From a virus: a DNA stretch of 64,000 nt. How positions within the stretch are numbered: position 1 is the first letter of the stretch; the number at the start of each line of letters is the position of its first letter. Positions 4,307 to 44,449 of the stretch are shown here, piece by piece. The notes under the pieces are model-generated. The model saw only the letters and a list, made by a program, of their open reading frames with translations, did no database searches and had not been told where the DNA came from. The DNA is taken from the UHGV virus genome UHGV-1366603; one strand, given 5' to 3'. The position numbers and the translations under genes were made by a program.

Positions 4307-4332
4307 TCAGATATATATTACCTAGAGGAGAG
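4307..4332 (+). promoter_or_regulatory. Copy 1 of recurring promoter-like motif TCAGATATATATTACCTAG(A/G)GGAGAG
   Basis: Near-identical motif also at 8362, 40079 and 44424, always upstream of a + strand gene and followed by a short hairpin. Confidence 0.5.
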
Positions 4333-8361: not shown

Positions 8362-8387
8362 TCAGATATATATTACCTAGGTGAGAG
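8362..8387 (+). promoter_or_regulatory. Copy 2 of recurring promoter-like motif
   Basis: TCAGATATATATTACCTAGGTGAGAG followed by inverted repeat gtgagag...ctctcac (8381-8402). Confidence 0.5.
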
Positions 8388-23499: not shown

Positions 23500-26400
23500 T
23501 TAAGATGTAAACATAAGATTGAACTGGAGTTTGTCGATATCGCGAGTTTCTGCCGGATTCACGGCATCGTACGCGGTCGCTACGTAAACGGTTAGCGTGC
23601 CGTTAGCGTAAGACGATTTCACCGGTGGGTTAGTTCCGGTCTGACCATCTCGCACAATGAGTGTAGGTTCACTTGGGAGATTATCAAACTGACCCTTGAC
23701 CGCTTTATACACCAAACCAGATTGCGCAGACAGTTCACTGTCCGTAAAGACAAAGAACGGTGTGTCGATATCTGCCTGTTTAATCGTGGTACCGGTCTCG
23801 ACGTCAATCAACTGTACCGCCCCAAACTTCGTACGATAACTTTCATACTCGTTCTTCGGAATAACGAACGTGACGTGAACGCGAACCTCCTCGGCAGGTT
23901 TAAACCCAGCGTGCTCTTTTTCCAGGTACTGGTTGGCGGTTAACGTTACCGTTTGTTCAGTCATCGTACCACCGGCCTGGTTTATTGCATACCGAGCTTC
24001 AACAATACCGGTTGGTGCAGCAAGTCGCAGTTTCAAAGCACGATTCGCCGTTCCTGGATTACCTGGCACCTGAACGCGCAAACTCAATGCTAGGTAAGCA
24101 TACGTTCCGGTAGTCGGTTTCGTATACGCACCAATCCATTTCATGTTCGCAGACGCTGCCTGCGTGTTTTCAGAAGCAGTGGCTGTCGCAATGTTGGCGG
24201 CTACCGCTTTCTGCCAGAATTGGTCAGCGCAGTTCTCATACGCTACCCTGGCCACGCTCTTATAACCCGAGTAAGTTTCCTGAATTGGTAACTTAGGACG
24301 CGTCGTAATACCAGACAGTGAACCCCATTTTTGACCGTCAACATACCCTTCACCTTTCGTCGCAGACGCCGTAGGTGCTTTAACGGGTTTGTTAACCAGC
24401 GTTAATAGAGGACCGGTCTTTCTGTCAAACGCTGCTGCTACATCGTGTTGGTCGATAATTGCCGCGTGGTCTTCCAGCTCTTTCACACGACCCAAACGTT
24501 TTACTTTGTCGATACTGATATCGGTAATACGGCTGGAATCGGTGGTTACCGTCCCGACGAACAGTCTTGTTGAAGTATCAGCTAACTGCTCCAAACCGAT
24601 ACGGTATTGCGCAGTAGAACCTGACACCTCAGCGTGCACGTAGAACGTTTGGTTAGCGTGATTGGACGGGAACTCGCTGCTTAAATCCACAGACCACGTT
24701 GGAAGTGTGTAACTGCTGCTACCGAAGTCTAACTTGACTTCTTCTGTCAAATACAGAATCCAGCCTTCTGCTGTCTCCACACCGGCAATAATAACAGCCT
24801 GACCTCCGGTTGAGAACGTCGTGTCGTTAACGAACTCTGCGGCTGTATACGCGTTACCTGAACAGAAAACACGGTCAGCTTTAGAGTAAATCAACGCCAT
24901 CTTGTCCCAATTACCGGCACCCATATAGCACCCAGATTCTGGGTTATGTGCAGGGGCCATCTGTCGTAACTGTGACTTACCAGGAACGCGAGACCAACCT
25001 GAACCTGGGTCGTAGGTATACTTCGCGGCGTAACCTAGTGCATTTAAGTCCCCGATATTTCGGATAGTTAACGTATAAGGTAGCCAAATACCGAAGTTTA
25101 CACCGTCGGCAGAAGCAAAAATTGGCTGACCGACACGTCGTGTTTTATTACCCGCTTCTTCCCTCAGAGACTGATAACTTAAACCATAATCGAGGTCTAA
25201 GAACCAGTCCACCAACTTAAAGGTGGCTGAGTTGAAACGTAAGTAGCCGTTCTCTTTAGATGGACTCACCATGAAGTAATAGATGTCAAGAATTCGACGT
25301 CCGTTACTTGAGGTTTTCATGCACGAAACTTGCAACAAGTCAAATTCGCACACGGTGTTGATACCCAACATCCAAAGAGCAAACAATGCATTACCGGTTT
25401 GATGGGCAGCGCTAATACGTTCATTCGCGTAACCATTTGCTTGACCAGATGGCGCACCGTCAACGATCATCCGAATCATTTTCTGGCGATCGGCTTCTTC
25501 TAGCGTTAAGCGTTCGGAAGACAATGCGAAATTACCGTAGATGTTACGATACGGGAACGTTTCTGCTTTGGTCAAATACCAACCGTTTAACTGCCCGTGA
25601 CGCTCCTCAGGAGTCATGCACGCAGCCATACAGCTAAGCTGCTCGTAAAGCGTTGCATCGACTTCACGACGGTTGTTGTTCGGACCGTATCCGCTATAAC
25701 CCGGAACATCGTAAGGTTTGTTCGGATCAACTTCTACTTCGATGGTGTAACGGTTACGTGGGTTAGACAACCACACTTTGTTCGAACCACCAATTCCGAC
25801 AGGATGGGAAAGACCGATGGTATAAATAGAACCGCGACCTTTATCCCAGGTAAACGTTCCTTCGCCCGAGGTGTTGTTTGGGTTATCGTAACGCAGATAG
25901 TCGAAAAGCTCTTTGCCTTGTGTTCCTTTAATAGAAACGTTCGTCATCTGGTCCGCATCGTTAATCTGCCAACAGGAAAGCATCATTCCTGTACCGTTGG
26001 GTTTAGCATACGTCGCGAAACAACGGTTGTTTGCCTGGCCACCACCCCACTTACGACTGGTTTCTACAGTTGAGCCATCCGCGAACGAGAGTGTAGTAGC
26101 ATCAGCCTTGATGGGGAAGCGTTCGCGGCCTTCTAACGTAACCTTGCCCGTCAACGTATCGATTGTGAAACTTGTTGCCCATTGACGGAAATTAATCGTC
26201 GAACCGTCTGCCGCCGCAAACCACACAGTGGGCACATGGTTCACACGAATCACGCTATCGCGTACAGCACACGCGTGGTTACATTCTGGACCGTGAACAA
26301 AGTTACGTCCGATCGTCCATTTAGCACGACCCTCCGGTGTGAGATATGTAAAGAATTGACCAGTCTGCGACTCTTCGGTCTTCTGACCAATTCGTAAACA

Positions 26401-28683
26401 GAGGTTATCCCCGAATTGTCCCATCTCCCCGTTTAGGGTTACACGTTCAAATTCTAACGTAGTGTTAGTAGACAAATCGGCTTTACGTAATCGCCATGCT
26501 GCAACAGCGTAAGCAGAGTTATTTACCGTAGAGCGGAGAAGATAAACGTAGTCATCAACCAACACAACATCATCGGTTTCTGGCCACGGATTCCAGGTTT
26601 GTTCCGTAGTACCGCTGGGGTTGCCGTTACGGTACACAGGCATCGTAACGCGGCATACCACCGTGTGCTTAGTGTGGTCCATCGAGCCATTAAACAGTAC
26701 CAAATAACGGTTATTATCAGAACCCAGGCAAATAATCGCTTCCTGGCCGCCGATCAATATCGCTTTTAGGGTCACTCCAGGATATTTACTCATCCCGGCA
26801 GGGTGATATTTCACTGAGGTCTGCTGCGGATTTACAAACGCGTTTGACGTGTTAATGTCCGCGTAGCCGTAATAAATAGCTTCTGTACCCGGTACGCCAT
26901 TAGAACCGTTACGTAGCGAATAAACCTTACCCTGCTGATGCCCAACAACCCCTTTCTGGTAGGACTGGTTTTTGGTGTAGCCTGCGTAGTTACCTAACGC
27001 TGGGATAGGTAAGAAGTTCTTGTTACCGAATTTCGCACCGCCTACCGTCCACGCCGGTAAGATGGTATTCAGTTTATCAGAGACCTTCTTAATCTCTTTT
27101 GCGAACAACCACCCTTGACGTGACGTGACAGCTTTATCATTAGTGGTGTCAATCGCATCCCACAGCTGTAAGATACCGTCAACCGTTGCACTACCAATTG
27201 GGACGTTATCCAAGTCAGCAGTGGTGTGGGTGTGCGTTTTCAAACTCTTGTTTTTCAACACGTTCGTTAACGCTTTTGTCACCGGCTTAGCACTCGGTAT
27301 GGTGTTATCCATCTTATCGATACCGAAATCGGTTTTCGTTAAGGTTAACACCATCTTGTCGCCCGTCTTAACAAACCCTTTACCGTTAACGGTATAGTCA
27401 TCGTCAACGTACAAGTCCAAACGGTCTTTTAATTCTGTTACAGCTTTCTGGGAGATGGCAGTACCTAACGCCGCAGACGTAGAGATATTCGTAATCGAGA
27501 ACAGCCCGTAAACCGATTCGGACGCTGTGGGAATATTCGCGTTTAACGTGACCGGGTTAGTCTGTTTTGCGGTACCGTACGGTTTTACGGTGTCTGACGC
27601 TTTGAAATACGCGTTTGCTTCAAGCAACGTTACTGACGTCAGATACATGTTCACCATTTCCGGTGTGACCAGATACACGGAGTTATAAACTGGCGCTAAT
27701 ACATCCTGTTCTGACCCCGAGTGAACCCAAAGCGTATTCAGACCCGCACTGAATTCAACCGCTAAACCCGATTCATTGTTGTCCTGGTCTGCTTTAATCA
27801 CCAACGGTTGTGGCGAGGTAATTAACCACTTATCGCCACGAATACTGATGATGTGGCCACCTGACGTTTTAAACGTTAATTCATTACCGTTCGTGGTACC
27901 CCATCGACCGTAAACGGTGCCGAGGGCTTCACCCATTAACTGGTCAACATCAGATTGTTCGATACCCGCTGAACCCATCAGCGTGGCCAATTCGTCAATC
28001 GTTAACCCAAACGCTTTAGTAGCGTCAACCGCACGTCCTAATACGGGGAGCGCAGCAACGTCGTCAGTGGTATAGTGATGCGCGTTAGGGTTACGGTGAT
28101 GCTGGTATAATTCTTCGTCGAAAACCTTTTTCCCGTTCTCGTAAATCAGGTTAGTGACTTCACTGAACGCAGCATCTAATTCCGTAGAACGTTTGATGAT
28201 TTTCTTACGAATGTCTTCTAACGCCTTAACGACCTCATCCATCAGAATCGCTTCTTCTAAGTTAGCAGGCGGGTCGATAGGCTGGATAACCGGCGCATAC
28301 GCCATTAGTTCAGACCAGTCCACGTTACGTGGGTCTTTCAGGTCAGTGCGAACTAAGAACTTCCCGATTTCAGATTGCGGTACACGGTATTGACGTGCTA
28401 CCCCTAAAATCTCATATTCGATTTCTGTTGCGGTAAGCAACATAAACCCGCCGTAAATCTGATCTTGCTCAGCTTCTGCGAGTTCTTTAAAGTAATAGCC
28501 TAAATAGTAGTCCAACCCCTCAATCAGAGTACGACGTCCGTTAGGCGCGGTATCGTCGGCTACTGTGAGTTTTAATCCGATACGATAAAAAGGTCCTTCA
28601 GGCGGAATGACCACGTTAAATCGGTTAGGGTACGTTGCTGTGCTTAGCGTACCGTTAAACTGCGCCGCGTCTTCTCTCGGCAT
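23500..28683 (-). CDS. Large tail fibre / tailspike-like structural protein (1727 aa)
   Basis: Single uninterrupted ORF; N-terminal PPEGPFYRIGLKL...GLDYYLGYYF anchor-like module; RBS aggag upstream. Confidence 0.6.
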   Translation of the reverse strand: MPREDAAQFNGTLSTATYPNRFNVVIPPEGPFYRIGLKLTVADDTAPNGRRTLIEGLDYYLGYYFKELAEAEQDQIYGGFMLLTATEIEYEILGVARQYRVPQSEIGKFLVRTDLKDPRNVDWSELMAYAPVIQPIDPPANLEEAILMDEVVKALEDIRKKIIKRSTELDAAFSEVTNLIYENGKKVFDEELYQHHRNPNAHHYTTDDVAALPVLGRAVDATKAFGLTIDELATLMGSAGIEQSDVDQLMGEALGTVYGRWGTTNGNELTFKTSGGHIISIRGDKWLITSPQPLVIKADQDNNESGLAVEFSAGLNTLWVHSGSEQDVLAPVYNSVYLVTPEMVNMYLTSVTLLEANAYFKASDTVKPYGTAKQTNPVTLNANIPTASESVYGLFSITNISTSAALGTAISQKAVTELKDRLDLYVDDDYTVNGKGFVKTGDKMVLTLTKTDFGIDKMDNTIPSAKPVTKALTNVLKNKSLKTHTHTTADLDNVPIGSATVDGILQLWDAIDTTNDKAVTSRQGWLFAKEIKKVSDKLNTILPAWTVGGAKFGNKNFLPIPALGNYAGYTKNQSYQKGVVGHQQGKVYSLRNGSNGVPGTEAIYYGYADINTSNAFVNPQQTSVKYHPAGMSKYPGVTLKAILIGGQEAIICLGSDNNRYLVLFNGSMDHTKHTVVCRVTMPVYRNGNPSGTTEQTWNPWPETDDVVLVDDYVYLLRSTVNNSAYAVAAWRLRKADLSTNTTLEFERVTLNGEMGQFGDNLCLRIGQKTEESQTGQFFTYLTPEGRAKWTIGRNFVHGPECNHACAVRDSVIRVNHVPTVWFAAADGSTINFRQWATSFTIDTLTGKVTLEGRERFPIKADATTLSFADGSTVETSRKWGGGQANNRCFATYAKPNGTGMMLSCWQINDADQMTNVSIKGTQGKELFDYLRYDNPNNTSGEGTFTWDKGRGSIYTIGLSHPVGIGGSNKVWLSNPRNRYTIEVEVDPNKPYDVPGYSGYGPNNNRREVDATLYEQLSCMAACMTPEERHGQLNGWYLTKAETFPYRNIYGNFALSSERLTLEEADRQKMIRMIVDGAPSGQANGYANERISAAHQTGNALFALWMLGINTVCEFDLLQVSCMKTSSNGRRILDIYYFMVSPSKENGYLRFNSATFKLVDWFLDLDYGLSYQSLREEAGNKTRRVGQPIFASADGVNFGIWLPYTLTIRNIGDLNALGYAAKYTYDPGSGWSRVPGKSQLRQMAPAHNPESGCYMGAGNWDKMALIYSKADRVFCSGNAYTAAEFVNDTTFSTGGQAVIIAGVETAEGWILYLTEEVKLDFGSSSYTLPTWSVDLSSEFPSNHANQTFYVHAEVSGSTAQYRIGLEQLADTSTRLFVGTVTTDSSRITDISIDKVKRLGRVKELEDHAAIIDQHDVAAAFDRKTGPLLTLVNKPVKAPTASATKGEGYVDGQKWGSLSGITTRPKLPIQETYSGYKSVARVAYENCADQFWQKAVAANIATATASENTQAASANMKWIGAYTKPTTGTYAYLALSLRVQVPGNPGTANRALKLRLAAPTGIVEARYAINQAGGTMTEQTVTLTANQYLEKEHAGFKPAEEVRVHVTFVIPKNEYESYRTKFGAVQLIDVETGTTIKQADIDTPFFVFTDSELSAQSGLVYKAVKGQFDNLPSEPTLIVRDGQTGTNPPVKSSYANGTLTVYVATAYDAVNPAETRDIDKLQFNLMFTS

Positions 28684-28715
28684 CGTAAAGACTCCTACTT
28701 TTAAATAAAATGGAT

Positions 28716-28740
28716 ACCCCTCCCCATTACAGGGAGGGGT
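28716..28740 (-). terminator. Intra-operon hairpin with U-rich tail (possible partial terminator or attenuator)
   Basis: On the minus strand, acccctccc-tgtaatg-gggaggggt is followed by atccattttatttaaaag, just before the RBS of the 1727-aa gene. Confidence 0.45.
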
Positions 28741-28777
28741 TACCTACGGACACACAACTGCCCGCAGGCAGCCTGTC

Positions 28778-31700
28778 CTAAGTACGATCCCCTAACTGCT
28801 TCCCGTTAAGTTCTCGTTTCAGTACAGAAAGTATCCATTTCCACGCTTTACTCGTGATATGGTACGGATTGCGTTTCTCCATTAAGAACTGCTTTTCACC
28901 GCTACGCAGTTCGAAGCTCTGCGCATTAAGCTGATCCTGACGAGTGCTTTGCTCATCAGTCACTTCTAACGAACAGGTAAAGTTAAGCTCGTAACCTTCA
29001 GGATTATTACCCGGCGGGTCTAAGACAATATAGATGTCCTGACCTACACGTAAATCCGTTGGAGTGATGGTAATCGCTTTACCCACATCGGCGTTAGTCG
29101 ACAGAGCAAACTCTGCACTATCGGTAGACGCTAAGAATGGGTCTTTCCCTGCGTCACCGATAATCACCTTACCCGGCCAGTTACTTTTTATCGTTCCTGA
29201 CACTCTTGCAATTCGGTACTGTTGTTTATCAACACCTTGTGCAAAACGGAGAATGAGTTTGTGACGATAACGACTTGCAGCAGCCTTAGTCGTACTCCAC
29301 TCGTTGTTCCAGGAAGTATGCAGTTCGTTTTTCTTCGCCATCAGCGCACCGCGAGACAGCTTACGGTCAAAGAACTGCGCAGGTAACTGCCCATCGTGAG
29401 AAACCGCAACGCTTCCCTGACCAGTTGGTAAAGCAATGCTTTCCGTAACGCGGTATTTTTGACTAATCTCATAAGTCGCAGGGTCAATCACAGACTGACT
29501 ATAATCAGCGTCTTTGTTATCAGCCAAATACCCAACGGATGAATCCAGATACGACTCAAACAGCGAACGTAAGTAATGATACTTATCAATGTTGATGTTG
29601 TTCGTAACCGGATCAATCAGCGCATGGCTAATCGTTACTCGGCATTTCGCACTCAGTTCTTTAAACGACAACCCTATTCCGTCACCGGTAAAATAATCCA
29701 CTAAGTCGAACGGGAATTGAATTTCCAACTGACGTTGTTTAACTGTCGTCGTCCCAAACTGCGAGAACGACAACGCTAAACGTAACACACGCGTACTCAC
29801 GTTATAGCGATAACGAATCATGCCACGAGGCGCATGGTTTGCAGAGATTTTATCTCGGGCGGCACCCCAACCAATCAAATCGAGAATCGCGGGGTTGGTT
29901 TCTTCACCGTTGAACAACACGTCCTTAAACGTTGCGTCAATCGCTGTTTCCCCAGACTCTTCCATTACCAACGGAATGTCAGTAACGTCTGAAACCGAAC
30001 GGGAACCAATCCCCAACTTACACTCTTTGGCCGTCAGGTCAATACGTACGTAACGACGCTTAACACTCGCACCTTGCGTTGACGTACACAGCACCAAATC
30101 CGGTGCAGCAGTAAGCGCTTGCGCCCCACCGACGTCGTCAACATCGAATGCAAACGAGCCTTCGAAGGTCGGTGCGTTGTTTTCTTTCGGGTTAAACGGT
30201 GTAAACCAACAATACGGCGTAGCACCTTCAGGTATCACAACGTATTGAAGACTGGATTTCACGTTTTGGTTGTGTGCGTAAGTATAAAGACCGCGACTGA
30301 CAAGATGGAAAACATCACCTGTACCGGCTGTTAACGCTTTCCTAAAGATACACGCTCTTGGTTCGGCAACAGCACGGTTTAATAACGGCAACCGTGGGTT
30401 ATCCGTTAACGCCCAGTCCACAGAACTGAGTCCGTGTGCTTTACGCGTGGCGATGTGTCCACTAACCTCGGCACTTTTCCCGAAATCAAACGTGGTTTCG
30501 AACCCAACTGTTTTATTCGCGTAATTCTCACCAGCAACAATATCAACGTAACCGATATAGCCACGTTCAGGATCAACTGCGATGCTCTGAATCGGTTCAG
30601 CACGCGAATATAGAGAGCCTGTGAGCATGTTAACGTACAGATAGTGACGAATCCCTACGTGCGTGGTAACAAACTCCTGGAGAAGCTCTACGCGCGTTTC
30701 AGGGCCACTGAAGTAAACAGGGTAATTCCCATCGTAAACTTCAAACTGTACCGCTGCGGACTTAGCCGTATCGCTACACTCAGCTTTAACCGCTACTGTG
30801 TAGTTTTCAACGTCCGATGACGTTTCGTACACTGCAACGAGCGGAGACTCGCCTGACGCTGCCAGGACACCGTTAATGTAAACCGTAACCGGACCGCCGC
30901 CCGCAGCATAAACCCAGAGCTTCGGTTGGTACGCCCTTACACGCGTTTTTGCCAATACCGTAACCACTGACTGGTCACCCATCTGCGTGGCAGTTTTACC
31001 CACCGGGACAGACTGGAACCCCATCAACGGCGGTTCTTCAATACCTGTCCAGTTGATTCCCGTACCGTTACTCACCTTACCCGTAGGCCAGGTCAGTTCA
31101 AGCTGGTTGTTCGGTGAGAACCAGTTAAACATCGGGGTGGTTTGCAGGTCAATCGCACCAGTAACGGTGCTGTCGCCTTTCGTCCCGTCCAGCAAATAGA
31201 AATATTTCAAATCCTGAACGGAGATTGACGTACCCTGGCTATTAAAACGCCAGTCCGCACCTTTCACAGCAGCGAAGTCAGTTACCGTGCCTTCTTTCGC
31301 GTTTGCAATTGCCGCAGCGACCACATCTAAACGTGCTGAAAGCTCTTTTAGGATGTTCGGTACCACTGCACGGTTTTCAACTAAGCCGTTCTGGTTAGTT
31401 GCGTAACGACCAATACCGTAAATCGTCTGCGAGGCTTTATAAATGCCTAACTCTGACCAGTCGTGATGGTGCCCGACGTCTGCTAAACCACTAACCGAAG
31501 CATTCAGTGCGGTCGACAACGGTTTGTCGAGGTCTGCGGTGTTATCCGCTTGCCCTAATCCCAGGTCAGCTTTCGTGATTGTCCTGGAACCGTCGTTCAT
31601 CGGCTTACCGTTAATCATGGTCGTTTTAGTCACGTACCCTGATAAGTCGGTTGAATACGGCGTTAATGATGCAGGCGTTGCAGCAACCCCAACCGTTTCT

Positions 31701-32962
31701 GTGCCTTTACCGGTTTTAAGCTTAACAACACCTTTTTCAGCGGTGGACGCTTTCGTTGGGTCGATAGTCCCCACGATAGGATCGGCACGAGAGCCTTTAC
31801 CGGTAAAACTAATCCCGTTACGGCCTTCGATATACACTTTGGAGTCATCAGGATCGCTACCGCCACTCCCGCCAGCATCAGGGTCTTGCTGATACTCCAT
31901 CAGCGCTGTGGTGGTCAACAACGGGTTACCGTTCAGGGTGAGTTTGTTCATCCCTAAAGCGTCGCCGGTTGACTCGATACGTAAGGTGTTTTTACCCGCA
32001 CGCCAGTTAATGTAACGTCCCGCACCTGTGCCTTCCAGATGCCCTACCGCTAATACCACAGAACCGTTGGATTTTAACGTAAAGCCATCATTCGCAAAAA
32101 TGATTTCTGACTCGCCGTTTTTCGAACGGAACTGTGCGCGGTTTCCTGACACCGTACAGTTAAACACACCCCGTACTTCCGAAGAAATCCAGTGAGAGAT
32201 ATACGTGTCGATAACCGACTGCGGTAAACGAAACGCTTTGAGTTCTTCCGTTAACGCTTTCAACTTTAACCCATACGCCATAAAGGTGTCGGGTGTTTTC
32301 AGGTTAACGGGATGGGCATTAATTTGTGCGCTCGTGGTTTCGTGCGGGTTCGTCGCGGCGATATGTGCTGGGTAGTTGAACGCTTCAATTTCTTTACCCA
32401 GCGCAGTCACTAACGCTTTAACTTCGGCTAATTTATCTTTAATTAGCTGGTTAGCATCATCGGTTTTCAGCTCAATATCGTGAATCGCTGACGCTAAATA
32501 TTTTTTGTTCAGCAAATCCGCCCAAGACGTTGCCGCAGGCGTAGCTGGATATAACGACGGCCTTCCGTCTAACAACAGCCAGTCTGCACTGACCGGGTTA
32601 TTCAAATATTTCACCAGCTCGTCGAGCATGTCAACGAACGGGTCGTAGAACGTACCGCCGAGCATTTGTCCTTCAAAGGTTACGATGCCTTTGATGGATG
32701 GGTTGATAAGGTGTACCCCACAATACACGTTGGCTGCTACCGAGTCATCCAGTTCCGTCAGCTGATATTGCAGTTCGTAGTCCACCCCACGGCTCAGTGG
32801 GGTGGTTGAACCTGGTTGTCTGACGACTAAATCTTCAAAGAACGGGCGATGGTCTAAAATCACCACCCGATCGTTGTTGTTTTCTGACCCGATGATACGC
32901 TCCTCTAAGAAGTGATTCTCGGTTTTCGTCCCCCGAGGATCGTAAGGATACGCTTTCATCAA
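28778..32962 (-). CDS. Large tail fibre / tailspike-like structural protein (1394 aa)
   Basis: N-terminal HRPFFEDLVVRQ...GVDYELQY anchor-like module; Gly/Thr/Ser/Asn-rich beta-type composition. Confidence 0.6.
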   Translation of the reverse strand: MMKAYPYDPRGTKTENHFLEERIIGSENNNDRVVILDHRPFFEDLVVRQPGSTTPLSRGVDYELQYQLTELDDSVAANVYCGVHLINPSIKGIVTFEGQMLGGTFYDPFVDMLDELVKYLNNPVSADWLLLDGRPSLYPATPAATSWADLLNKKYLASAIHDIELKTDDANQLIKDKLAEVKALVTALGKEIEAFNYPAHIAATNPHETTSAQINAHPVNLKTPDTFMAYGLKLKALTEELKAFRLPQSVIDTYISHWISSEVRGVFNCTVSGNRAQFRSKNGESEIIFANDGFTLKSNGSVVLAVGHLEGTGAGRYINWRAGKNTLRIESTGDALGMNKLTLNGNPLLTTTALMEYQQDPDAGGSGGSDPDDSKVYIEGRNGISFTGKGSRADPIVGTIDPTKASTAEKGVVKLKTGKGTETVGVAATPASLTPYSTDLSGYVTKTTMINGKPMNDGSRTITKADLGLGQADNTADLDKPLSTALNASVSGLADVGHHHDWSELGIYKASQTIYGIGRYATNQNGLVENRAVVPNILKELSARLDVVAAAIANAKEGTVTDFAAVKGADWRFNSQGTSISVQDLKYFYLLDGTKGDSTVTGAIDLQTTPMFNWFSPNNQLELTWPTGKVSNGTGINWTGIEEPPLMGFQSVPVGKTATQMGDQSVVTVLAKTRVRAYQPKLWVYAAGGGPVTVYINGVLAASGESPLVAVYETSSDVENYTVAVKAECSDTAKSAAVQFEVYDGNYPVYFSGPETRVELLQEFVTTHVGIRHYLYVNMLTGSLYSRAEPIQSIAVDPERGYIGYVDIVAGENYANKTVGFETTFDFGKSAEVSGHIATRKAHGLSSVDWALTDNPRLPLLNRAVAEPRACIFRKALTAGTGDVFHLVSRGLYTYAHNQNVKSSLQYVVIPEGATPYCWFTPFNPKENNAPTFEGSFAFDVDDVGGAQALTAAPDLVLCTSTQGASVKRRYVRIDLTAKECKLGIGSRSVSDVTDIPLVMEESGETAIDATFKDVLFNGEETNPAILDLIGWGAARDKISANHAPRGMIRYRYNVSTRVLRLALSFSQFGTTTVKQRQLEIQFPFDLVDYFTGDGIGLSFKELSAKCRVTISHALIDPVTNNINIDKYHYLRSLFESYLDSSVGYLADNKDADYSQSVIDPATYEISQKYRVTESIALPTGQGSVAVSHDGQLPAQFFDRKLSRGALMAKKNELHTSWNNEWSTTKAAASRYRHKLILRFAQGVDKQQYRIARVSGTIKSNWPGKVIIGDAGKDPFLASTDSAEFALSTNADVGKAITITPTDLRVGQDIYIVLDPPGNNPEGYELNFTCSLEVTDEQSTRQDQLNAQSFELRSGEKQFLMEKRNPYHITSKAWKWILSVLKRELNGKQLGDRT

Positions 32963-32972
32963 AAAATTCTCC

Positions 32973-35900
32973 TTAATCGCGAATGATTACCGCCTGCACT
33001 TTATTGTTGGTGTCGATAAACGACATTACGCGCTCCTTGTTAAGATAAGGAGGTATCGGTAACGCAGCGTAATCCGCCAGGTTGTTATTAAACTCGGTTG
33101 CCACTAGCGCATTAAGCGTTTCGGGGTCTGAGCTTGTCCCGGCCAATTCCATGACACGTACACGATTTAACGAGGAGTAGTTGCTAATATAATCCAGCAG
33201 CGTACCGTAGAGTTTGTTCCCGGTTATGCTGTCTGCCGTAGAACGGATATTAGCACGCACTTCGTCCTCATAAAGTCCCCCTAAACCGTAGTAAATAGGG
33301 GTGTACGGATCGTTAACGATAGGTGCAATATTGAACCCGGTTAAACGGTCGCTTAGTGGGATTTTCTGCGTAGTGCCGCCTGCTGCTGTACAGCTTACGT
33401 ATTTATCTACCGCAGACAAGTACACCACGATAGTGTAAACGGTACCTGCTAAGGTCAGCGATGCGTTAAACGTTAAGTCGTTATTCGCACCACGCGTGTG
33501 TGTAAAAGTCACATCGGGTTGTAACGTACTCCACGGTGCAGGTGTAACACGTTTGGTGGGCGTGAAGCCTAACACCACAGATTTCCCGTTACCGAAGTTT
33601 AAACCAAACCCGGCGTAACAATACTCGCCGTTGCTATCAGTTAACCGATAACCACGGGTGACAAGTAACGACAACCGCATAAACTCGCCATCGGTGTTTT
33701 TCCAGCAACCCAGGACGGTTTCTAGCACCGTTCCGGTTTTTGCGTTGCTTTCGGTTTCCCAACTGACTCGCATCCCCGCATTGTTAAATACTGGGAACAA
33801 GTTGTGGATAAACCCGTGAACGTTATCACTTACCCCTTTCGCATCAAACACCCACTTCGACGCAAGCTGGTCGTATTTCACACCATCGAGTGCTTTATAT
33901 CCACCGCCAACCACATAACGCCAATCTGCCTCGCCACGCACAACCGCTTGAAGTCCAGAAGCCCAGCAGGGCGCACCTACTGTTAAATTGCTTAACCCCA
34001 GCACTGCACGCGGAGCAGAACGCTGAATATGTGCGTTGTCATTAGCGACGTGGTCTTTCAATTCACGGAAATCGCCTAACCGTGTCACGTTACGTAGTTC
34101 AGTAACGAACACTTCAGAAAGGTCGTTAATACCGATCAGCCCCACGCGCGTCATGGTATCCGTTTCAGCCTGACTGTAGCTGTCGTGAATAATATACTTC
34201 GCTTTGTTATCGACAATGTCAACAAAAATCCCTGCGTAAATTTCCTTATTCAGATTCGGGAAACGTTCAGTGACGTTAACCGACATCAACGGCACGTCGT
34301 ACGTTTCGCCGCCAATGAAATACGTGGAAGCAGGAAGTGTCACCAGGATTTTGTCTTTAACCGTAACGTCAATTAGGTCGTTACCGGACTTACCAAAGCG
34401 AATAATGTCAACGCGAGCACCCGAGTCAACCCCACCGACGGTATTCTCCAAATCTTCAATCTGGGAAGTCTGCGCCATCACCACACTACCATCGAGTGCT
34501 AAGGTGACATCATCCACATCCAGACCGAACTTAATCAGACCCCGTTTCGTGGTGTCTGCGTTTTCAACACCGAACACAGAAGACGGGTGTTGGTGAACCT
34601 TCGGTGAGTATTTGTCTAACTCAGTCTGTTGTGCAACAGAAATCGGTAAGTCAACGTCCGGGGTATTCGCAACGTTACCTAAACCAAAGGTAATTTTGTC
34701 GATAGTAACCGAACTGGTAAGCTGCATGTCGTTGATGTACGACTTGGCAGCAACCAACTTACCAGTAAACTCTGCGTCCAGTTTTTCAATTAGCGCAGGA
34801 GTCGCCGCGAGGTTTTCAGCCGTACCAAACTCGTCAGTCAACTGCCAACACGCTAACGTAGTAACGTCTTCGGCAACCGGAAGGATAAACGTTGCGACAA
34901 ACGGCGATGCTTTAATCCCGCTACCGGTAAGTTCCACCGTAGACGTCGACGCACCGTAGAACAGACCTGTACCGCCTGCGGTATTACCCGGCAAATACGG
35001 ACCGACCGTAGTGGGGTCTAAGAGCTTCTTACCACGCCACAACAATCCACGGTCATCGGGGTATAGCACAAGCTGGTTACCGCCTGCTTGTAACGTAACA
35101 GGGTTATTACCCACGTTAACATCGGTAGAACCTTGACCGATGAACTTAATGGATTTCGGATCAACGACGAACTGGGCACCTAAACGTTTTTCGTCAACTA
35201 CACCAGGTGCTTTCTTAATGGTAACCGTGTTACCTTTGTTTTGCGAACTAATAGAGACGCCGTCAGCAACATTATTGATCAGCGATTTAAAGTGATGCTG
35301 ATTCTCTAATGCTTCTAACGCAGCGTCCATGTTATCGAAGTTAATCCGGGAGCTATACGTTTTACCGTTTAAGCTAATAACGGCGTCAAACACGTTCCCT
35401 GTACGCTTCAGTTGAAAACGCAGCGTAAAATCCCCATCCGGTATTGCTGGATCAGGAGCTTGAGAAATGTACCGAACTGACGGTACCGGATTCCCGTAAC
35501 CGTGCAACGACAGTTCGATAGTAAGAGTACCACTCCGGACTTCACCGAAAATCTCTACGTACTTACCGGAGTTACTACCGGGATTTTCGTAGAAACGTAA
35601 ACCGGCCCTACCGACTGCCTCATTACCAGACGCTGTTTTACGTCCAGTAACAATAAAGTCAATATCTTGCAGGCTGGCGGGTACCGCGTTAAAAGAAGCA
35701 CTAAATCCATTCTTCGTTCCTGTGTAACGAAGTGCGCCGTGATACGTGCGACCTTGACTAACATAGCTTTCGCTAAAATAAGGATTCACGTATTTAGACA
35801 TCGAAACCGGATCAACTTCTGTCGTGAACGAAGTAAAACCGGATAGCGTTCCAATGGTTCCGTCGGCCGTTTTCGTAGTTGACGTGCGCAGTAGTTTCTT

Positions 35901-37295
35901 TTGCGCAGTCAATGTTGCTTGCGTTGGATACTTAGCATTAACATAATCTGTTAACTGCGGCTTCGTTTTTCCGTAAGCTAACGCTGCATCCGTCGCAATA
36001 CCATTCAACTCTAACGCACGAATCGGGCCCCAAGTGTCAGCGTGTGGGTTATCCTTACGAGTGACGTGTTCGTGTGCAGGGGCGTTGCGATAGAGTTGTT
36101 CTACTAACTGATGGTACTTAACGATTAGCTGATAAACGTCATTACTTACGTCGGCTTCTGGCGCACCAGGTAACGCAAGGAATTGAGCGTAATCGTTTTC
36201 AGCCGCCCACCAGTTTAAGTTAACGTTGGTTTTGTATTTCAGCCACTTCGCAACGTCGGTTTTGCTGTAACCTGCTGAGAATTCGTCTGGCGGTGTGTCA
36301 ACGTTAAACGTATAGTCCATGGACTGTTTGTTAGTCGTTACCTCGATAACGTATACACCATTACCCGGCTGACGAACGACACTAAACGTTAACTCGCCTT
36401 TTAATTCATCGTCGGTCAAACCGTTGATTAACGTATAATCGTAATCGGTCGAACCACTGCCTAACGCAACCGTTAGACGTAGGCCGATTTTACGTTGTTT
36501 TAATTGGAGACGAAGGATACTTGCGCCACCGTTCGCGTAACACAACATCCAATCGATTTGTTCGTTCGGATTAATACTCCCCATATTCGGAAAAATAGCC
36601 GGAATGCGGTATTTCATCGACAGGGAATATTCATTTAACGTGGTGGTTTTGTACGTAACAGAGAAACGACGTTTAGCGGTATTGTAAGTATACCCACCTT
36701 TGTTGTCGTACGTTGCGTACTGTTCAGACGTGATAACCGTGCCATTAGCGCGATGCTCGATATCTAACGTGTTACGTGCAATCGGGTCTACCCGATTCAC
36801 CACGTTACCTAACGAATCACCTAAGCCTGCAATGGCCTGCATTAATTCCAGTTCACCTTTCCAGTTTTCCCAGTCAAACTGAATATCAACCGGTGGAAAG
36901 TAAACGTCTCCGATAACGGTATCCCATTGACACGCAGACGGGTATTTATCTTTATTGAGTTCGCGTTCTGCGGTAATCTGTTCTTGGGTCGCTTCACCAC
37001 AACCTACGGCGTGGTAATCTACCGTGAAATTCGATTTGTATTTGTCGTTAACAATCCAAATCATCCCGTGCACGAGATAGGCTGTGCGCAACATACCGGT
37101 CTCGTACGGGTGTGTAATAACGTAATCGTCGCCTAAGGTCAGTATTTTGCCGCCGCTCTTGACCACCAGGGATGTGGTGAAAAAAGGGGCGTGGGCAGGT
37201 ACCAACATTCGGTACTTCGTACCAATGACGGCGACCGCTTCACCGGTTATTTTATTCCCCGGTTCTTTGAAGTGTGGGTCTAGGACGACAGCCAT
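32973..37295 (-). CDS. Large tail fibre / tailspike-like structural protein (1440 aa); first gene of the operon in this window
   Basis: N-terminal AHAPFFTTSLVVK...GDDYVITHPY module; RBS aggag upstream; divergent from the + gene at 37363. Confidence 0.6.
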   Translation of the reverse strand: MAVVLDPHFKEPGNKITGEAVAVIGTKYRMLVPAHAPFFTTSLVVKSGGKILTLGDDYVITHPYETGMLRTAYLVHGMIWIVNDKYKSNFTVDYHAVGCGEATQEQITAERELNKDKYPSACQWDTVIGDVYFPPVDIQFDWENWKGELELMQAIAGLGDSLGNVVNRVDPIARNTLDIEHRANGTVITSEQYATYDNKGGYTYNTAKRRFSVTYKTTTLNEYSLSMKYRIPAIFPNMGSINPNEQIDWMLCYANGGASILRLQLKQRKIGLRLTVALGSGSTDYDYTLINGLTDDELKGELTFSVVRQPGNGVYVIEVTTNKQSMDYTFNVDTPPDEFSAGYSKTDVAKWLKYKTNVNLNWWAAENDYAQFLALPGAPEADVSNDVYQLIVKYHQLVEQLYRNAPAHEHVTRKDNPHADTWGPIRALELNGIATDAALAYGKTKPQLTDYVNAKYPTQATLTAQKKLLRTSTTKTADGTIGTLSGFTSFTTEVDPVSMSKYVNPYFSESYVSQGRTYHGALRYTGTKNGFSASFNAVPASLQDIDFIVTGRKTASGNEAVGRAGLRFYENPGSNSGKYVEIFGEVRSGTLTIELSLHGYGNPVPSVRYISQAPDPAIPDGDFTLRFQLKRTGNVFDAVISLNGKTYSSRINFDNMDAALEALENQHHFKSLINNVADGVSISSQNKGNTVTIKKAPGVVDEKRLGAQFVVDPKSIKFIGQGSTDVNVGNNPVTLQAGGNQLVLYPDDRGLLWRGKKLLDPTTVGPYLPGNTAGGTGLFYGASTSTVELTGSGIKASPFVATFILPVAEDVTTLACWQLTDEFGTAENLAATPALIEKLDAEFTGKLVAAKSYINDMQLTSSVTIDKITFGLGNVANTPDVDLPISVAQQTELDKYSPKVHQHPSSVFGVENADTTKRGLIKFGLDVDDVTLALDGSVVMAQTSQIEDLENTVGGVDSGARVDIIRFGKSGNDLIDVTVKDKILVTLPASTYFIGGETYDVPLMSVNVTERFPNLNKEIYAGIFVDIVDNKAKYIIHDSYSQAETDTMTRVGLIGINDLSEVFVTELRNVTRLGDFRELKDHVANDNAHIQRSAPRAVLGLSNLTVGAPCWASGLQAVVRGEADWRYVVGGGYKALDGVKYDQLASKWVFDAKGVSDNVHGFIHNLFPVFNNAGMRVSWETESNAKTGTVLETVLGCWKNTDGEFMRLSLLVTRGYRLTDSNGEYCYAGFGLNFGNGKSVVLGFTPTKRVTPAPWSTLQPDVTFTHTRGANNDLTFNASLTLAGTVYTIVVYLSAVDKYVSCTAAGGTTQKIPLSDRLTGFNIAPIVNDPYTPIYYGLGGLYEDEVRANIRSTADSITGNKLYGTLLDYISNYSSLNRVRVMELAGTSSDPETLNALVATEFNNNLADYAALPIPPYLNKERVMSFIDTNNKVQAVIIRD

Positions 37296-37362
37296 TATCT
37301 ACTCCTATAGTCCGTGGGCGTCGAGTTCATACTATGACTTGAATCTATTGAGGAAAAGAGCT

Positions 37363-38625
37363 GTGACTACTGCTTATCAAGTGCGGCCTGACAGCGCTTT
37401 TGGCTTCTCTCGTGAGACCCGTACCTGGGGAGCCATCGACGTCACGCAACCCTTAGAAACCTTGTGTTCTGATTACCATATTTTCGAAGTCGGTCTGAGT
37501 GCGCTTGGTAAAGACTATACGTTAATTAGCCAATATCACCTCGCTGACTTACAAAACCGTACCGATACATTACAAGACTGGCTGAATGAAAAAGCCGGTG
37601 TGGTTATCTCTGCGTTGAAAGACGGTTTACCGACGTTAGAGTTTGATTGGGCACACTATCAATCGATTAATGCTGATGTTCCAGTAGAAACCTATCTGTG
37701 TCCTCCTGGTTATCACTACAGTCAAGAATTCAGTATAGACGATGCTGACGACGTTGTGATTGTTTGCGAAGATAAATGGAAAGACAAATACCGTAACGGG
37801 GTGCTGTATAACATCAACGGTCAATGGGTACCACATCAGTCGGATACTGTTGGTGTACGTTTACCGGGTGCAGGTAAGATAGTACGTCGTGCAGGGACAC
37901 CGGATATCGGGTGCATGGTCTTTAGTAAATTGGGGAATGTTAAAACGTACCCCATTGCTAACTTGACCTTAAACAAACTCGACACCACCCGTGACTATTA
38001 TTCCACGTTAATGATTTCTTTACCGGAATCTATTACAGGTAAAACCGTGGGGTTTGTTATCGGGGGACTGATACACTGGTTACCGGTTACTGGGTACTTC
38101 TCCGACAAAGCCATTATGGTGTCGCTACCGAACTTTGACGTTGCGCGTACTGTGTTAGAAACACGTCGCTATTACGATTGGGACAGTATTGGTGTTGGCG
38201 ATTTATCATCGCCGACCAGCGTACAGCGTATCCGCAACCCAGAAACGTTAAAGGCGCTTTTAACCCACGAGTCGTCGTTTATCTTTACGGTGGATAATCC
38301 GTATCTGGAAGAAGAAGTTGTGGGGGTTTCTCACAACGCTATCTGGGGACGTTTATACCTTAAAGATCCTACTGACCCTGACGGGGAAAAGCAGCTGGGG
38401 TATCTGTTAAACCGCTTCGGTAAAACCGTTGCCTATTGGCCGACGTGGGAAGAAGGGGAATGGGTATTTAACACCACGGAGTTCGACAGTCAAAACTACG
38501 TGTTCCGTGAAGCCCGCTGGTATAACCAGAAGAAAATTAACGATGCACAGGCAATCGTAGGGCCTTTCGGTCCCTGGGAAAAAGTCTATTTGGAAATGCA
38601 TCGTTTCCGTGCAAGAAAAAAATAA
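37363..38625 (+). CDS. Hypothetical protein (420 aa)
   Basis: Track ORF starts at 37147 inside the 1440-aa gene; trimmed to an in-frame GTG at 37363 with RBS gaggaaaagag. Confidence 0.45.
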   Translation: MTTAYQVRPDSAFGFSRETRTWGAIDVTQPLETLCSDYHIFEVGLSALGKDYTLISQYHLADLQNRTDTLQDWLNEKAGVVISALKDGLPTLEFDWAHYQSINADVPVETYLCPPGYHYSQEFSIDDADDVVIVCEDKWKDKYRNGVLYNINGQWVPHQSDTVGVRLPGAGKIVRRAGTPDIGCMVFSKLGNVKTYPIANLTLNKLDTTRDYYSTLMISLPESITGKTVGFVIGGLIHWLPVTGYFSDKAIMVSLPNFDVARTVLETRRYYDWDSIGVGDLSSPTSVQRIRNPETLKALLTHESSFIFTVDNPYLEEEVVGVSHNAIWGRLYLKDPTDPDGEKQLGYLLNRFGKTVAYWPTWEEGEWVFNTTEFDSQNYVFREARWYNQKKINDAQAIVGPFGPWEKVYLEMHRFRARKK

Positions 38626-38629
38626 GTAA

Positions 38630-38671
38630 CCTCCTACCCTCTTAGAGGGTAGGAGTAGCACGTTTTTTTTT
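38630..38671. terminator. Bidirectional intrinsic terminator
   Basis: Hairpin ctcctaccctc-ttag-agggtaggag followed by a 10-T run. Confidence 0.7.
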
Positions 38672-38675
38672 TCAC

Positions 38676-38885
38676 TTAGTCTTTTTTGTAGACGATCGCG
38701 TTACCGTGCAGTTTGTTGTTACCGGAAATACCGATAACTTTAAACGCTTCACCGCCGATCTTTTCAGCTTCGACAGCCAGCTTAGCAGTAACGTCGTCTA
38801 CGGTGTCACCGAAAGCGCTTACGTTACCAATTTTCTTGAACTCTTCAGGAATGTGTTCAGCAGAAGAGAATTCTTTAATAGCCAT
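38676..38885 (-). CDS. DUF1471 (YhcN/BhsA/McbA-family)-like small protein lacking a signal peptide
   Basis: KKIGNVSAFGDTVDDVTAKLAVEAEKIGGEAFKVIGISGNNKLHGNAIVYKKD matches the conserved core pattern of enterobacterial DUF1471 proteins (from memory); RBS ggagag; no hydrophobic N-terminus. Confidence 0.55.
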   Translation of the reverse strand: MAIKEFSSAEHIPEEFKKIGNVSAFGDTVDDVTAKLAVEAEKIGGEAFKVIGISGNNKLHGNAIVYKKD

Positions 38886-39084
38886 AGCTACTCTCCAGTT
38901 AAAGAAAGGAAGGACTGTATCGTGTTACAACCAAAGCATAAGATAGCTCCTCCCCGAAGGGAGGAGTGAGTGCGCGAAAAAAGTGGCCTGCTTAACTAAA
39001 CGATGAGGTTTAAGAAAAGTGTTGATAAGAAGCTTACCAACGTCAGGTCACAATATATAATACCAACGTAAGAAAAAGGGGAAA

Positions 39085-40050
39085 TTAGCGTGGGCCTGAA
39101 GTTGGGCCATGTACACCGTCGTGGATGTGTACGCTGAAGGTAATACCGGAAATCACCGCATCCTTAACTGTAAAGACACCCACACCTTCACCCGTACCAC
39201 CGTATTTGAAGTTCTTAGCAACTTCCAAATTACCGGTGAACATCGCTTCATTACCCTCTTGCTTAAAGTTCGGCGTTTTATACGTTGTGGAACCGGAGGC
39301 TTCGGTTAGCCACGTTTCTGTTTTAAAGGTAACCGATTTCGACGCTTCGGTATTCCGAACTTCGCATTTCTCATTAATCGTTTTCGTTTCCAGGTTAATC
39401 GAACGTTTTGCGTAAATGAACGCATCTTCTTTGTTGATGTTCACTTTCGAGAGCATCGCGTTCTCAAAACCTAAATCGTCTTCCACCGAGTTAATGTAAT
39501 ACTTATTCCCTTTATGGTCAACGCACTGCCACGACCCGTTAGCGTTATCGAATTGGAATAACCACGCCGCTTTCTCCCCGTTCACCATACTTGTTCTTAG
39601 GGTAACGTGTTTGTCAATCGTTGAGACGTTTAACACATACGCGTTCGACAAGTCATCCGCCATCTGGTTTTCAGGGTCAGCAGACCACGCGTAAACCGCA
39701 TCCTCTAATCGCTTAACGTTAGCGAAATTCAAATCAATCCAAAAATAAATATCGGTTTGCCCTAGACGTAGCAAGATAACATAATCTTCACGCTTAACGT
39801 CTGGGGAATTAATTCGATTGGAATTAAACTTCCACCACTTTGCGGTAATCGTGTTACCGGTTTTAATCGTTAGGTTGTCGGTAGCACCCCCGGCTTCGTG
39901 TACCTTTTCAGCGGTTGAGGAAACTGACTGTACAACGGTAGGGTTCGCAAAGTTGGTTTCAATGGGAATAACACTCACCCGATCCGTACCACGAGGTTTA
40001 TCTTCCGCGACGATACCAATCGAGAAAAAGTCAACGCTGGATTTCTCCAT
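39085..40050 (-). CDS. Hypothetical protein (321 aa), possibly structural
   Basis: Long ORF with beta-rich composition; no recognisable motif. Confidence 0.5.
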   Translation of the reverse strand: MEKSSVDFFSIGIVAEDKPRGTDRVSVIPIETNFANPTVVQSVSSTAEKVHEAGGATDNLTIKTGNTITAKWWKFNSNRINSPDVKREDYVILLRLGQTDIYFWIDLNFANVKRLEDAVYAWSADPENQMADDLSNAYVLNVSTIDKHVTLRTSMVNGEKAAWLFQFDNANGSWQCVDHKGNKYYINSVEDDLGFENAMLSKVNINKEDAFIYAKRSINLETKTINEKCEVRNTEASKSVTFKTETWLTEASGSTTYKTPNFKQEGNEAMFTGNLEVAKNFKYGGTGEGVGVFTVKDAVISGITFSVHIHDGVHGPTSGPR

Positions 40051-40078: not shown

Positions 40079-40130
40079 TCAGATATATTTTACTTAGGTG
40101 AGTAGGGGCTGAAGTGCGAATTCAGCCCCT
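40079..40130 (+). promoter_or_regulatory. Copy 3 of recurring promoter-like motif plus downstream hairpin
   Basis: TCAGATATATTTTACTTAGGTGAG followed by inverted repeat aggggctgaa-gtgcgaa-ttcagcccct. Confidence 0.45.
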
Positions 40131-40438
40131 ATGGGCACGTTTCTTTCGAAACGGAGTTACCATGTGATTAGGAGACAGACCAATGTCTACTGAGAAGAAA
40201 AGCGGATTGGACGAAGTCATCGAATTGTTCAAACGCTACAACCCGGCTATTCCTCGGTAATCATAGTATTACTTAAAATTTACAGATTGTCCCTTTATTC
40301 TGCTACTCGGGATACCGGTAGGGGGTAGGGGGCAATATGTATACGGATATAAATAGCGGAGGTATACGTAGTATACCGACATACTCTTCCCAGAGGAACG
40401 TAGTGACTTCCTTATTCCTTTTTAGGAGAATAAACCTC

Positions 40439-44423: not shown

Positions 44424-44449
44424 TCAGATATATATTACTCAGGTGAGAG
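44424..44449 (+). promoter_or_regulatory. Copy 4 of recurring promoter-like motif
   Basis: TCAGATATATATTACTCAGGTGAGAG followed by an imperfect inverted repeat; precedes the secreted-protein array. Confidence 0.5.

Follow-up and report, generated by a model that had tools for sequence, protein, structure and literature searches.

A DUF1471 gene without an export signal beside the central spike gene of SPN3US-like jumbo phages: origin, context and possible roles

What is a domain known from exported stress proteins of enterobacteria doing, without an export signal, among the tail genes of a jumbo phage? The question is raised by a gene for a 69-residue protein on the minus strand of a 64,000-nucleotide stretch of the virus genome UHGV-1366603; this whole stretch, hereafter the window, comes from an SPN3US-like ("Seoul-like") nucleus-forming jumbo phage. 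The gene is already catalogued, as a member of the group formed by SPN3US gp172 and PHROG 8068, and RefSeq contains an identical protein that is correctly named for its domain (WP_079772428.1, "DUF1471 domain-containing protein"). We found no literature joining SPN3US and DUF1471, and none on phages among the 30 DUF1471 papers listed; that gp172 belongs to DUF1471, that its group has systematically lost the leader, that the gene is syntenic beside the spike gene throughout the clade and that the TATG architecture is conserved appear to be unreported. The product would be a late cytoplasmic protein that may be loosely bound, as an accessory, at the periphery of the tail or baseplate, or may act in the assembly of these, a reading to which we give a little less than an even chance. 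The locus brings together two literatures that do not cite each other, on SPN3US gp172 and on the DUF1471 family, with a modest payoff, as the gene is catalogued and its role so far proposed only.

The DUF1471 domain and the missing leader

The gene and the signals that define its start are as follows.

38676-38885, minus strand: coding sequence of the DUF1471 (PF07338) protein, 69 amino acids (aa), ATG start, no signal peptide; orthologue of SPN3US gp172 and member of PHROG 8068
38891-38896, minus strand: Shine-Dalgarno sequence GGAGAG, 5 nucleotides (nt) 5' of the ATG
38925-38927, minus strand: in-frame TAA, 13 codons 5' of the ATG, which rules out an N-terminal extension or signal peptide

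The full protein sequence is MAIKEFSSAEHIPEEFKKIGNVSAFGDTVDDVTAKLAVEAEKIGGEAFKVIGISGNNKLHGNAIVYKKD. Its only Pfam match is PF07338 (YdgH_BhsA-like, formerly DUF1471), which aligns over profile positions 2-55 of 55 at E=3.4e-10 and, with 40.3 bits, clears the gathering score of 27 bits; the DUF1471 assignment of the original prediction, made from the letters alone, is thereby confirmed by a profile search. The AlphaFold2 model (pLDDT 86) has a strand at residues 4-6, a short helix, a strand at 16-26, a helix at 29-43 and strands at 47-54 and 59-68. This predicted order of elements agrees with the described DUF1471 fold, in which a short N-terminal strand and a short helix are followed by a beta-alpha-beta-beta arrangement with strand order 2-4-3-1 (PMC4092069). 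When the model was compared with the PDB using Foldseek, the best DUF1471 matches were 4EVU, 2M2J, 2JNA and 2MA8, with TM-scores of 0.72-0.78 (domains of YdgH, SrfN and YahO), and the nearest solved relative by sequence is Salmonella YahO (2MA4/2NOC); no solved structure containing a phage DUF1471 member was found. The top TM-score (0.84, normalised to the query) went to 2Y1B, the periplasmic domain of RcsF, an outer-membrane lipoprotein of the Rcs envelope-stress relay. An RcsF-like resemblance of DUF1471 domains has already been published (PMC4092069; PMC12096828), and here the likeness is at the level of the fold only: sequence identity is ~11%, and the window protein lacks the lipobox, cysteines, disulfides and long loops of RcsF.

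With the enterobacterial DUF1471/YhcN family (BhsA/YcfR, YbiJ, McbA, YahO, YhcN, SrfN, RclB and the YdgH domains) the window protein shares both the Pfam domain and the predicted fold, and it contains the core motif of the family, IG.VS..G.T...L..KA...GA..F.I...G.N...G.A..YK. Phage and bacterial DUF1471 domains are 40-58% identical, and all phage-type proteins run 1-11 residues past the canonical C-terminal Y-K, where most bacterial relatives stop. The NCBIfam equivalog for BhsA/YcfR, NF047859, reaches 47.4 bits against a cut-off of 90 and aligns to profile positions 30-85 of 85 only; the YbiJ, YahO, McbA and YhcN models also fall below their cut-offs and match through their mature parts only. 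PHROG 8068 includes entries from Erwinia phages Stratton, Kwan and Wellington named "putative multiple stress resistance protein BhsA", and at 47 bits, where 90 are required, the BhsA name given in some phage records overstates the evidence and is not justified.

The absence of a signal peptide, also proposed originally, is borne out. The stop-to-stop frame opens at the TAA at 38925-38927, and an upstream in-frame start that could supply a signal peptide was looked for and is absent between this TAA and the ATG. The N-terminus, MAIKEFSSAEHIPEEF, is acidic, and the highest 10-residue Kyte-Doolittle mean of the window protein is 0.84, whereas nearly all full-length bacterial relatives reach at least 1.9; nor does the protein contain a cysteine, a lipobox or an RR motif. 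A word-indexed protein search had returned just four close relatives, so that an exhaustive profile search, over 1.84 billion representative proteins, was needed; it yielded 40. Among these, the sequences whose alignment begins at residue 1 have lengths of 68-78 aa and show no hydrophobic N-terminal segment. The bacterial relatives are mostly 80-91 aa with an MK...hydrophobic...AxA leader, and the exceptions look truncated or mis-called. A signal peptide is thus a feature of nearly all full-length bacterial relatives and of none of the 17 phage-type sequences. Because the window protein has no Sec signal peptide, the normal periplasmic route is closed to it.

At the level of the open reading frame (ORF), the description as a stand-alone gene was accurate, with flanking intergenic gaps of 199 nt and 50 nt, and all orthologous loci have GGAG or GAGG at the equivalent Shine-Dalgarno position. 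Two plus-strand antisense ORFs longer than the DUF1471 ORF (38706-38969 and 38713-38946) were judged spurious, and the window holds no DUF1471 paralogue elsewhere. Among relatives, Erwinia phage Derbicus gp168 is deposited with a GTG start 12 codons upstream (80 aa), and alignment with Phobos and CR5 favours an internal ATG (68 aa). In Wellingtonvirus, a second DUF1471 gene stands in tandem after the first (Erwinia phage Wellington gp189, L006:2787-3347 among our loci, and L016:1805-2371), and its product joins a domain without a signal peptide (aa 22-66) to an acidic stretch of ~120 aa, low in complexity and probably disordered.

A conserved slot and a host origin

Homologues of the gene were found in 60 INPHARED records, all of them 224-251-kb jumbo phages related to SPN3US. 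The protein matches PHROG 8068 with E=1.1e-31 (protein residues 1-69, profile 1-70) and is 43-78% identical to its phage orthologues, with SPN3US gp172 (SPN3US_0172, YP_009153466.1) at 43%. With gp172 it shares length, the lack of a signal peptide, the slot, with the spike gene on one side and the gp171 homologue on the other, and the arrangement of terminator and TATG box. In IMG/VR there are 16 family loci on sequences of 107-248 kb, and in BFVD there are two models, all within the SPN3US-like clade. The phage of the window is very common in bacterial assemblies, though absent from the deposited-phage set: among deposited phages, the closest DNA match of the region is Erwinia phage phiEaH2 at 77% identity, which is not a close match, and the exact 69-aa protein is indexed in 1836 blocks of a public assembly collection, on contigs of ~221-226 kb. 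Two "complete circular plasmids" are 96-98% identical to the window at the DNA level, NZ_CP173450.1 (E. coli 98232, a urine isolate) and NZ_CP134650.1 (Enterobacter ludwigii 51A:C, a gull isolate), and both encode WP_079772428.1. This occurrence fits the "Seoul-like" persistent virulent jumbo phages that have been described from bacterial assemblies (bioRxiv 10.1101/2024.12.31.630880; PMC12768965).

The gene lies in an equivalent slot in all 13 phages examined, which come from at least five genera (Seoulvirus, Erskinevirus, Machinavirus, Wellingtonvirus and Derbicusvirus, together with the lineage of the window itself). The conserved order is spike, DUF1471, convergent gp171 homologue and then the fibre paralogues gp170, gp169 and gp168, and the two immediate neighbours in the window are these:

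39085-40050, minus strand: central spike of the baseplate, 321 aa, the upstream neighbour; homologue of SPN3US gp173 and phiKZ gp164, PHROG 3216
37363-38625, plus strand: gp171 homologue, 420 aa, GTG start, the convergent neighbour; PHROG 3337, as in the gene calls of sister contigs

Across the phages examined the spike neighbour is 300-320 aa long. Pairwise dN/dS values of 0.03-0.25 point to purifying selection on the DUF1471 gene. The spike homologue is present in 290 jumbo-phage records and the DUF1471 gene in only the ~60 closest of them; in the outgroups Klebsiella phage N1M2 and Erwinia phage Deimos-Minion nothing stands between the spike gene and the next convergent gene.

The DUF1471 family is held to be exclusive to Enterobacteriaceae (PMC12096828), and the restriction to Enterobacterales is upheld by the phages that carry the gene, which infect Erwinia, Salmonella, Escherichia, Cronobacter and Proteus. 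This exclusivity, the 40-58% domain identity, the clade-wide synteny and the empty slot in the outgroups indicate one ancient capture of an enterobacterial host gene, followed by loss of the leader and fixation. A comparison with host homologues placed the phage-type sequences in one clade of a neighbour-joining tree, with a bootstrap value of 16% (57 columns); because this value is so low, the single origin is drawn from synteny and not from the tree.

The original prediction had likened the gene to a moron or host-derived insertion, and the two halves of that comparison fared differently. Host origin stands, as judged from the domain identity and the outgroups that lack the gene. A sporadic moron does not, as the gene is fixed and syntenic in 13 of 13 phages and ~60 records: where a moron would be expected to be patchy, this gene is in essentially every SPN3US-like member and absent only from distant outgroups. 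The likeness to phage morons consists of the host origin, an own terminator, probably an own promoter, a place between two conserved structural genes and the absence from outgroups. The difference is that the window gene is ancient and fixed across a multi-genus virulent clade, has no sigma-70 promoter, is not known to be expressed from a quiescent genome, and has an orthologue, in SPN3US, whose product was detected in virions.

Two observations concern the plus-strand neighbour and the genes beyond it. A mechanical ORF at 37147-38625 on the plus strand (492 aa, TTG start) overlaps the start of the opposite-strand tail-fibre gene, and the gp171 homologue probably begins instead with the GTG at 37363 (420 aa), the start given for it in the gene calls of sister contigs. 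On the minus strand, 23500-37295 holds three successive giant genes of 1727, 1394 and 1440 aa, which correspond to the SPN3US gp168-170 paralogue family and are baseplate or tail-fibre candidates related to phiKZ gp131.

The orthologue in SPN3US particles and the possible roles

The position of the gene favours a role in the tail, since both neighbours are tail parts: gp173 is the counterpart of the phiKZ spike gp164, and SPN3US gp171 is an essential, tail-associated protein (PMC5105663). Protein evidence comes from SPN3US. In CsCl-purified virions gp172 was detected with four unique peptides and six spectra at 81% coverage, and was called the smallest virion protein (PMC5694885). In a later study it is tabulated as "Tail" (PMC7411985 Table S2), and the same table gives its peptide-spectrum matches (PSMs) by preparation:

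Virions from a CsCl step gradient with no further purification (two preparations): 6 and 3 PSMs
Tailed virions further purified by buoyant density: 0 PSMs
DNA-full tailless heads: 2 PSMs
Crude differential-centrifugation pellet: 13 PSMs, the highest count
Three purified prohead-plus-tail preparations: 0, 0 and 0 PSMs

From these counts, gp172 is certainly made and is abundant in crude particulate material. Its mass spectrometry pattern is nonetheless unlike that of a stable tail component, and several points weigh against placing it in the tail. The signal is highest in the crude pellet and falls to zero in the tailed virions purified by buoyant density; it appears in tailless heads; and it is missing from all three prohead-plus-tail preparations, in which gp171 gave 23, 39 and 39 PSMs and gp173 gave 3, 27 and 26 (PMC7411985 Table S2). 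In addition, 47(am1) particles lacked gp172 and no other protein of the wild-type virion, an absence that the authors suspected of being a gel artefact (PMC5694885). To these can be added that the residues invariant across the phage clade are those of the fold core only, with no conserved interaction surface evident, and that no structure of a Seoul-like tail was found in the literature. The authors caution that a 7-kDa protein may be lost from gels, so that absences argue both ways. Attachment to the particle is therefore loose, sub-stoichiometric or technically hard to capture. The Asesino paper holds no proteome data.

Given these data, we propose the following sequence of events for the tail-accessory or assembly-factor reading. 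An SPN3US-like ancestor would have taken up an enterobacterial DUF1471 gene, keeping the mature domain only, and the captured gene would have come to lie, separately transcribed, between the central-spike gene and the gp171 gene that runs toward it. It would be expressed in the cytoplasm from a promoter of the phage non-virion RNA polymerase (nvRNAP), marked by a TATG box, at middle or late times. Without an export signal the protein would remain where tails and baseplates assemble, and could there become a small, peripherally bound accessory of the tail or baseplate, or act as an assembly factor. If it is borne on the particle, it would reach the envelope, where host DUF1471 proteins act, on the virion and not through Sec. 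Spike complexes enter the periplasm on contraction, as described for P2 gpV (PMC12407873), and because they are delivered there, a Sec-independent route to the envelope is plausible. Should gp172 prove to belong genuinely to the particle, a virulent jumbo phage would clearly have made virion equipment of a host periplasmic stress-protein domain, and, after 20 years of E. coli and Salmonella phenotypes, there would be a handle on what DUF1471 domains bind.

An extension of this idea, which we consider improbable, is that the domesticated envelope-stress domain serves as non-Sec cargo. Carried on the baseplate or spike, or freed at lysis, it would reach the outer membrane or periplasm of the next host and engage there the partners that host DUF1471 or RcsF-like proteins have. 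If so, the partners could be porins, OmpA, DegP or the Rcs sensor path, and the benefit could be easier penetration, blunted envelope-stress or capsule responses, or help to the persistent infection seen in Seoul-like phages.

The same counts can be read as those of a non-structural, host-directed protein, soluble in the cytoplasm of infected or persistently infected cells, where it might disturb a host process, for example by titrating away a partner of the precursors of host DUF1471 proteins; the virion detections would then reflect adventitious co-purification. We regard this as unlikely, at a chance of somewhat more than one in five. It would account for the missing export signal and for a gp172 signal that peaks in the crude pellet and vanishes on stringent purification, and genes that modulate the host could be of use to Seoul-like phages, given that these persist in bacterial isolates. 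Evolution is also somewhat faster than in the neighbours: the window and SPN3US proteins are 43% identical, their spikes 64%. A soluble late protein would be a candidate host-modulating factor in a phage group that persists inside clinical isolates. However, known or proposed partners and sites of DUF1471 proteins are outer-membrane proteins, DegP and the outer membrane (PMC4092069; PMC12096828), and a cytoplasmic copy is without a known target. The gene also lies inside the baseplate module and not among early or host-takeover genes, there is no experimental hint of a host phenotype, and PADLOC returned no matches, on which result a defence or anti-defence role was rejected as well. The "cytoplasmic mimic or decoy" of the original prediction finds no support here, given that the known partners and sites are periplasmic or in the outer membrane and that gp172 is found in purified virions, itself shaky evidence.

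Abundance in crude tail and prohead material with traces in purified virions is also what a dedicated chaperone or scaffold might leave, one that assists assembly of the spike, the baseplate or the gp168-170 fibres, is abundant in cells and transient on assembling tails, and is largely absent from mature virions. Small chaperone genes typically adjoin those of their client tail proteins, as with T4 gp38 and gp57A and lambda Tfa, and the conserved position directly after the spike gene would agree with this. The outgroups N1M2 and Deimos-Minion, however, assemble homologous HxH spikes without a DUF1471 gene, and no known tail chaperone with a DUF1471 fold was among the Foldseek matches in the PDB and BFVD. 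Together with the transcriptional insulation of the gene described below, these points make a dedicated chaperone improbable.

The absence from 47(am1) particles and the presence in tailless heads raise a further alternative: a protein inside the head or associated with ejection, packaged in dependence on gp47 and delivered into the cell with the DNA. That gp172 alone is missing from 47(am1) particles would follow from it, as would the 2 PSMs in DNA-full tailless heads. Against it, gp172 was not marked as a head protein in the analysis of tailless mutants and is tabulated as "Tail", the three prohead-containing preparations gave 0 PSMs, the gene is in the tail module, and the 47(am1) absence is the one for which a gel artefact was suspected. 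We consider this alternative very unlikely.

A small gene directly downstream of the central-spike gene also has positional analogues in the PAAR tips phiKZ gp163.1 and T4 gp5.4, and a replacement of the tip was considered for the DUF1471 protein. In a comparison with the PDB, the spike of the window matches PHIKZ164 with E=1.8e-23, and its residues 266-320 match Mu gp45; the correspondence of gp173 with ORF164 is given in the supplement of Thomas 2016, and phiKZ gp164 is the trimeric central spike in the phiKZ cryo-electron microscopy atlas. The spike C-terminus ends in ...FSVHIHDGVHGPTSGPR, an HxH apex of the Mu gp45 and P2 gpV type, and the last 55 residues match the apex domain of Mu gp45. 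Spikes with a C-terminal HxH have been proposed to need no tip protein (PMC12407873). The replacement was rejected: the DUF1471 protein has no PAAR motif, the spike has its own apex, and N1M2 and Deimos-Minion share the HxH apex yet have neither gene. The spike itself is a mosaic, with a phiKZ gp164-like N-terminal part (aa 4-259) and the C-terminal HxH apex (aa 266-320). phiKZ-like Pseudomonas phages, by contrast, have a blunt gp164 and a separate PAAR tip gene, gp163.1, whose product is the spike tip in the phiKZ atlas; in the phiKZ-like phage PA7 the equivalent slot holds an 88-aa PAAR protein identical to phiKZ gp163.1. Both spike-tip solutions are thus in use among Chimalliviridae.

Transcription signals around the gene

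The signals that flank the gene are listed below.

38616-38672, both strands: bidirectional intrinsic terminator, with a hairpin at 38631-38655, the T-run of the plus-strand gene at 38663-38672 and an A-run at 38616-38622 that is the T-run of the minus-strand gene
38936-38940, minus strand: TATGC box, with TATG at 38937-38940 and G38937 as putative +1, 55 nt 5' of the ATG
38947-38966, minus strand: hairpin CTCCTCCC-TTCG-GGGAGGAG, upstream of the TATG box
38976-38987, minus strand: 12-mer GCCACTTTTTTC between the spike and DUF1471 genes, preceded by a TCG(C/T)TTG box

The bidirectional terminator had been noticed before, and its A and T runs and hairpin (~-25 kcal/mol, z = -4.6 on both strands) uphold it; a downstream terminator hairpin is at the equivalent position in all relatives. 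Rfam gave only a sub-threshold match to a PyrG leader there (32 bits against 65), which was set aside. On the upstream side, a "plausible promoter" had also been suggested. A promoter of host type was rejected: no sigma-70-like site was found upstream on the strand of the gene, as is expected of phiKZ-type phages, which rely on polymerases of their own for transcription. What is conserved there instead is a TATG(C) box that resembles those of the phiKZ nvRNAP. In 13 of 13 loci the start codon is preceded, at a distance of 43-69 nt, by TATG (mostly TATGC) in surrounding sequence that has diverged, and shuffling gives an expectation of 0.03-0.04 TATGC per locus for that interval. In phiKZ, TATG with G as +1 is the necessary core of late promoters (PMC4666361), and the box may well act as a late nvRNAP promoter here. 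As for the own promoter and terminator expected of a moron, the terminator is clear and a putative promoter is read from this box.

Two points weigh against the promoter. TATG and TATGC are not enriched in the intergenic DNA of the window, so that the promoter role is argued from conservation alone, and TATG(C) was not generalised as a phage-wide promoter motif. Furthermore, most relatives have a hairpin, then a T-run/TTTAC, ~16 nt and TATG, and the TTAC around -22 in them recalls, by analogy, the phiKZ middle-promoter element; the window has no T-run/TTTAC between hairpin and TATG, and its hairpin at 38947-38966 abuts the box. Apart from this gap, the window differs from SPN3US gp172 and its kin at the sequence level only.

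That upstream hairpin had been taken for a leader of the DUF1471 mRNA. Because it lies upstream of the TATG box, and because in relatives the equivalent hairpin is followed by a TTTTTT(A)C run and only then by the box, its likeliest role is that of an intrinsic terminator for the spike gene upstream. Such a terminator would insulate the DUF1471 gene transcriptionally from the spike gene, which is the further point against a dedicated spike chaperone.

Further upstream, GCCACTTTTTTC is exact in 17 fetched loci (four genera and the lineage of the window) and unique in the window, with a TCGTTTAG box 5' of it at ~38997-39004; the region gave no conserved RNA structure with RNAalifold, no Rfam family and no obvious promoter logic.

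A different box, CAGATATATATTAC, resembles the AT-rich early promoters of phiKZ-like phages. The DUF1471 gene has no such box upstream, which tells against a host-directed role. Elsewhere in the window it recurs upstream of plus-strand genes, often right after a terminator hairpin, with three exact plus-strand copies at 4308-4321, 8363-8376 and 44425-44438, and a plus-strand copy with one mismatch, at 40080-40093, falls between the spike gene and the divergent gene at 40337.

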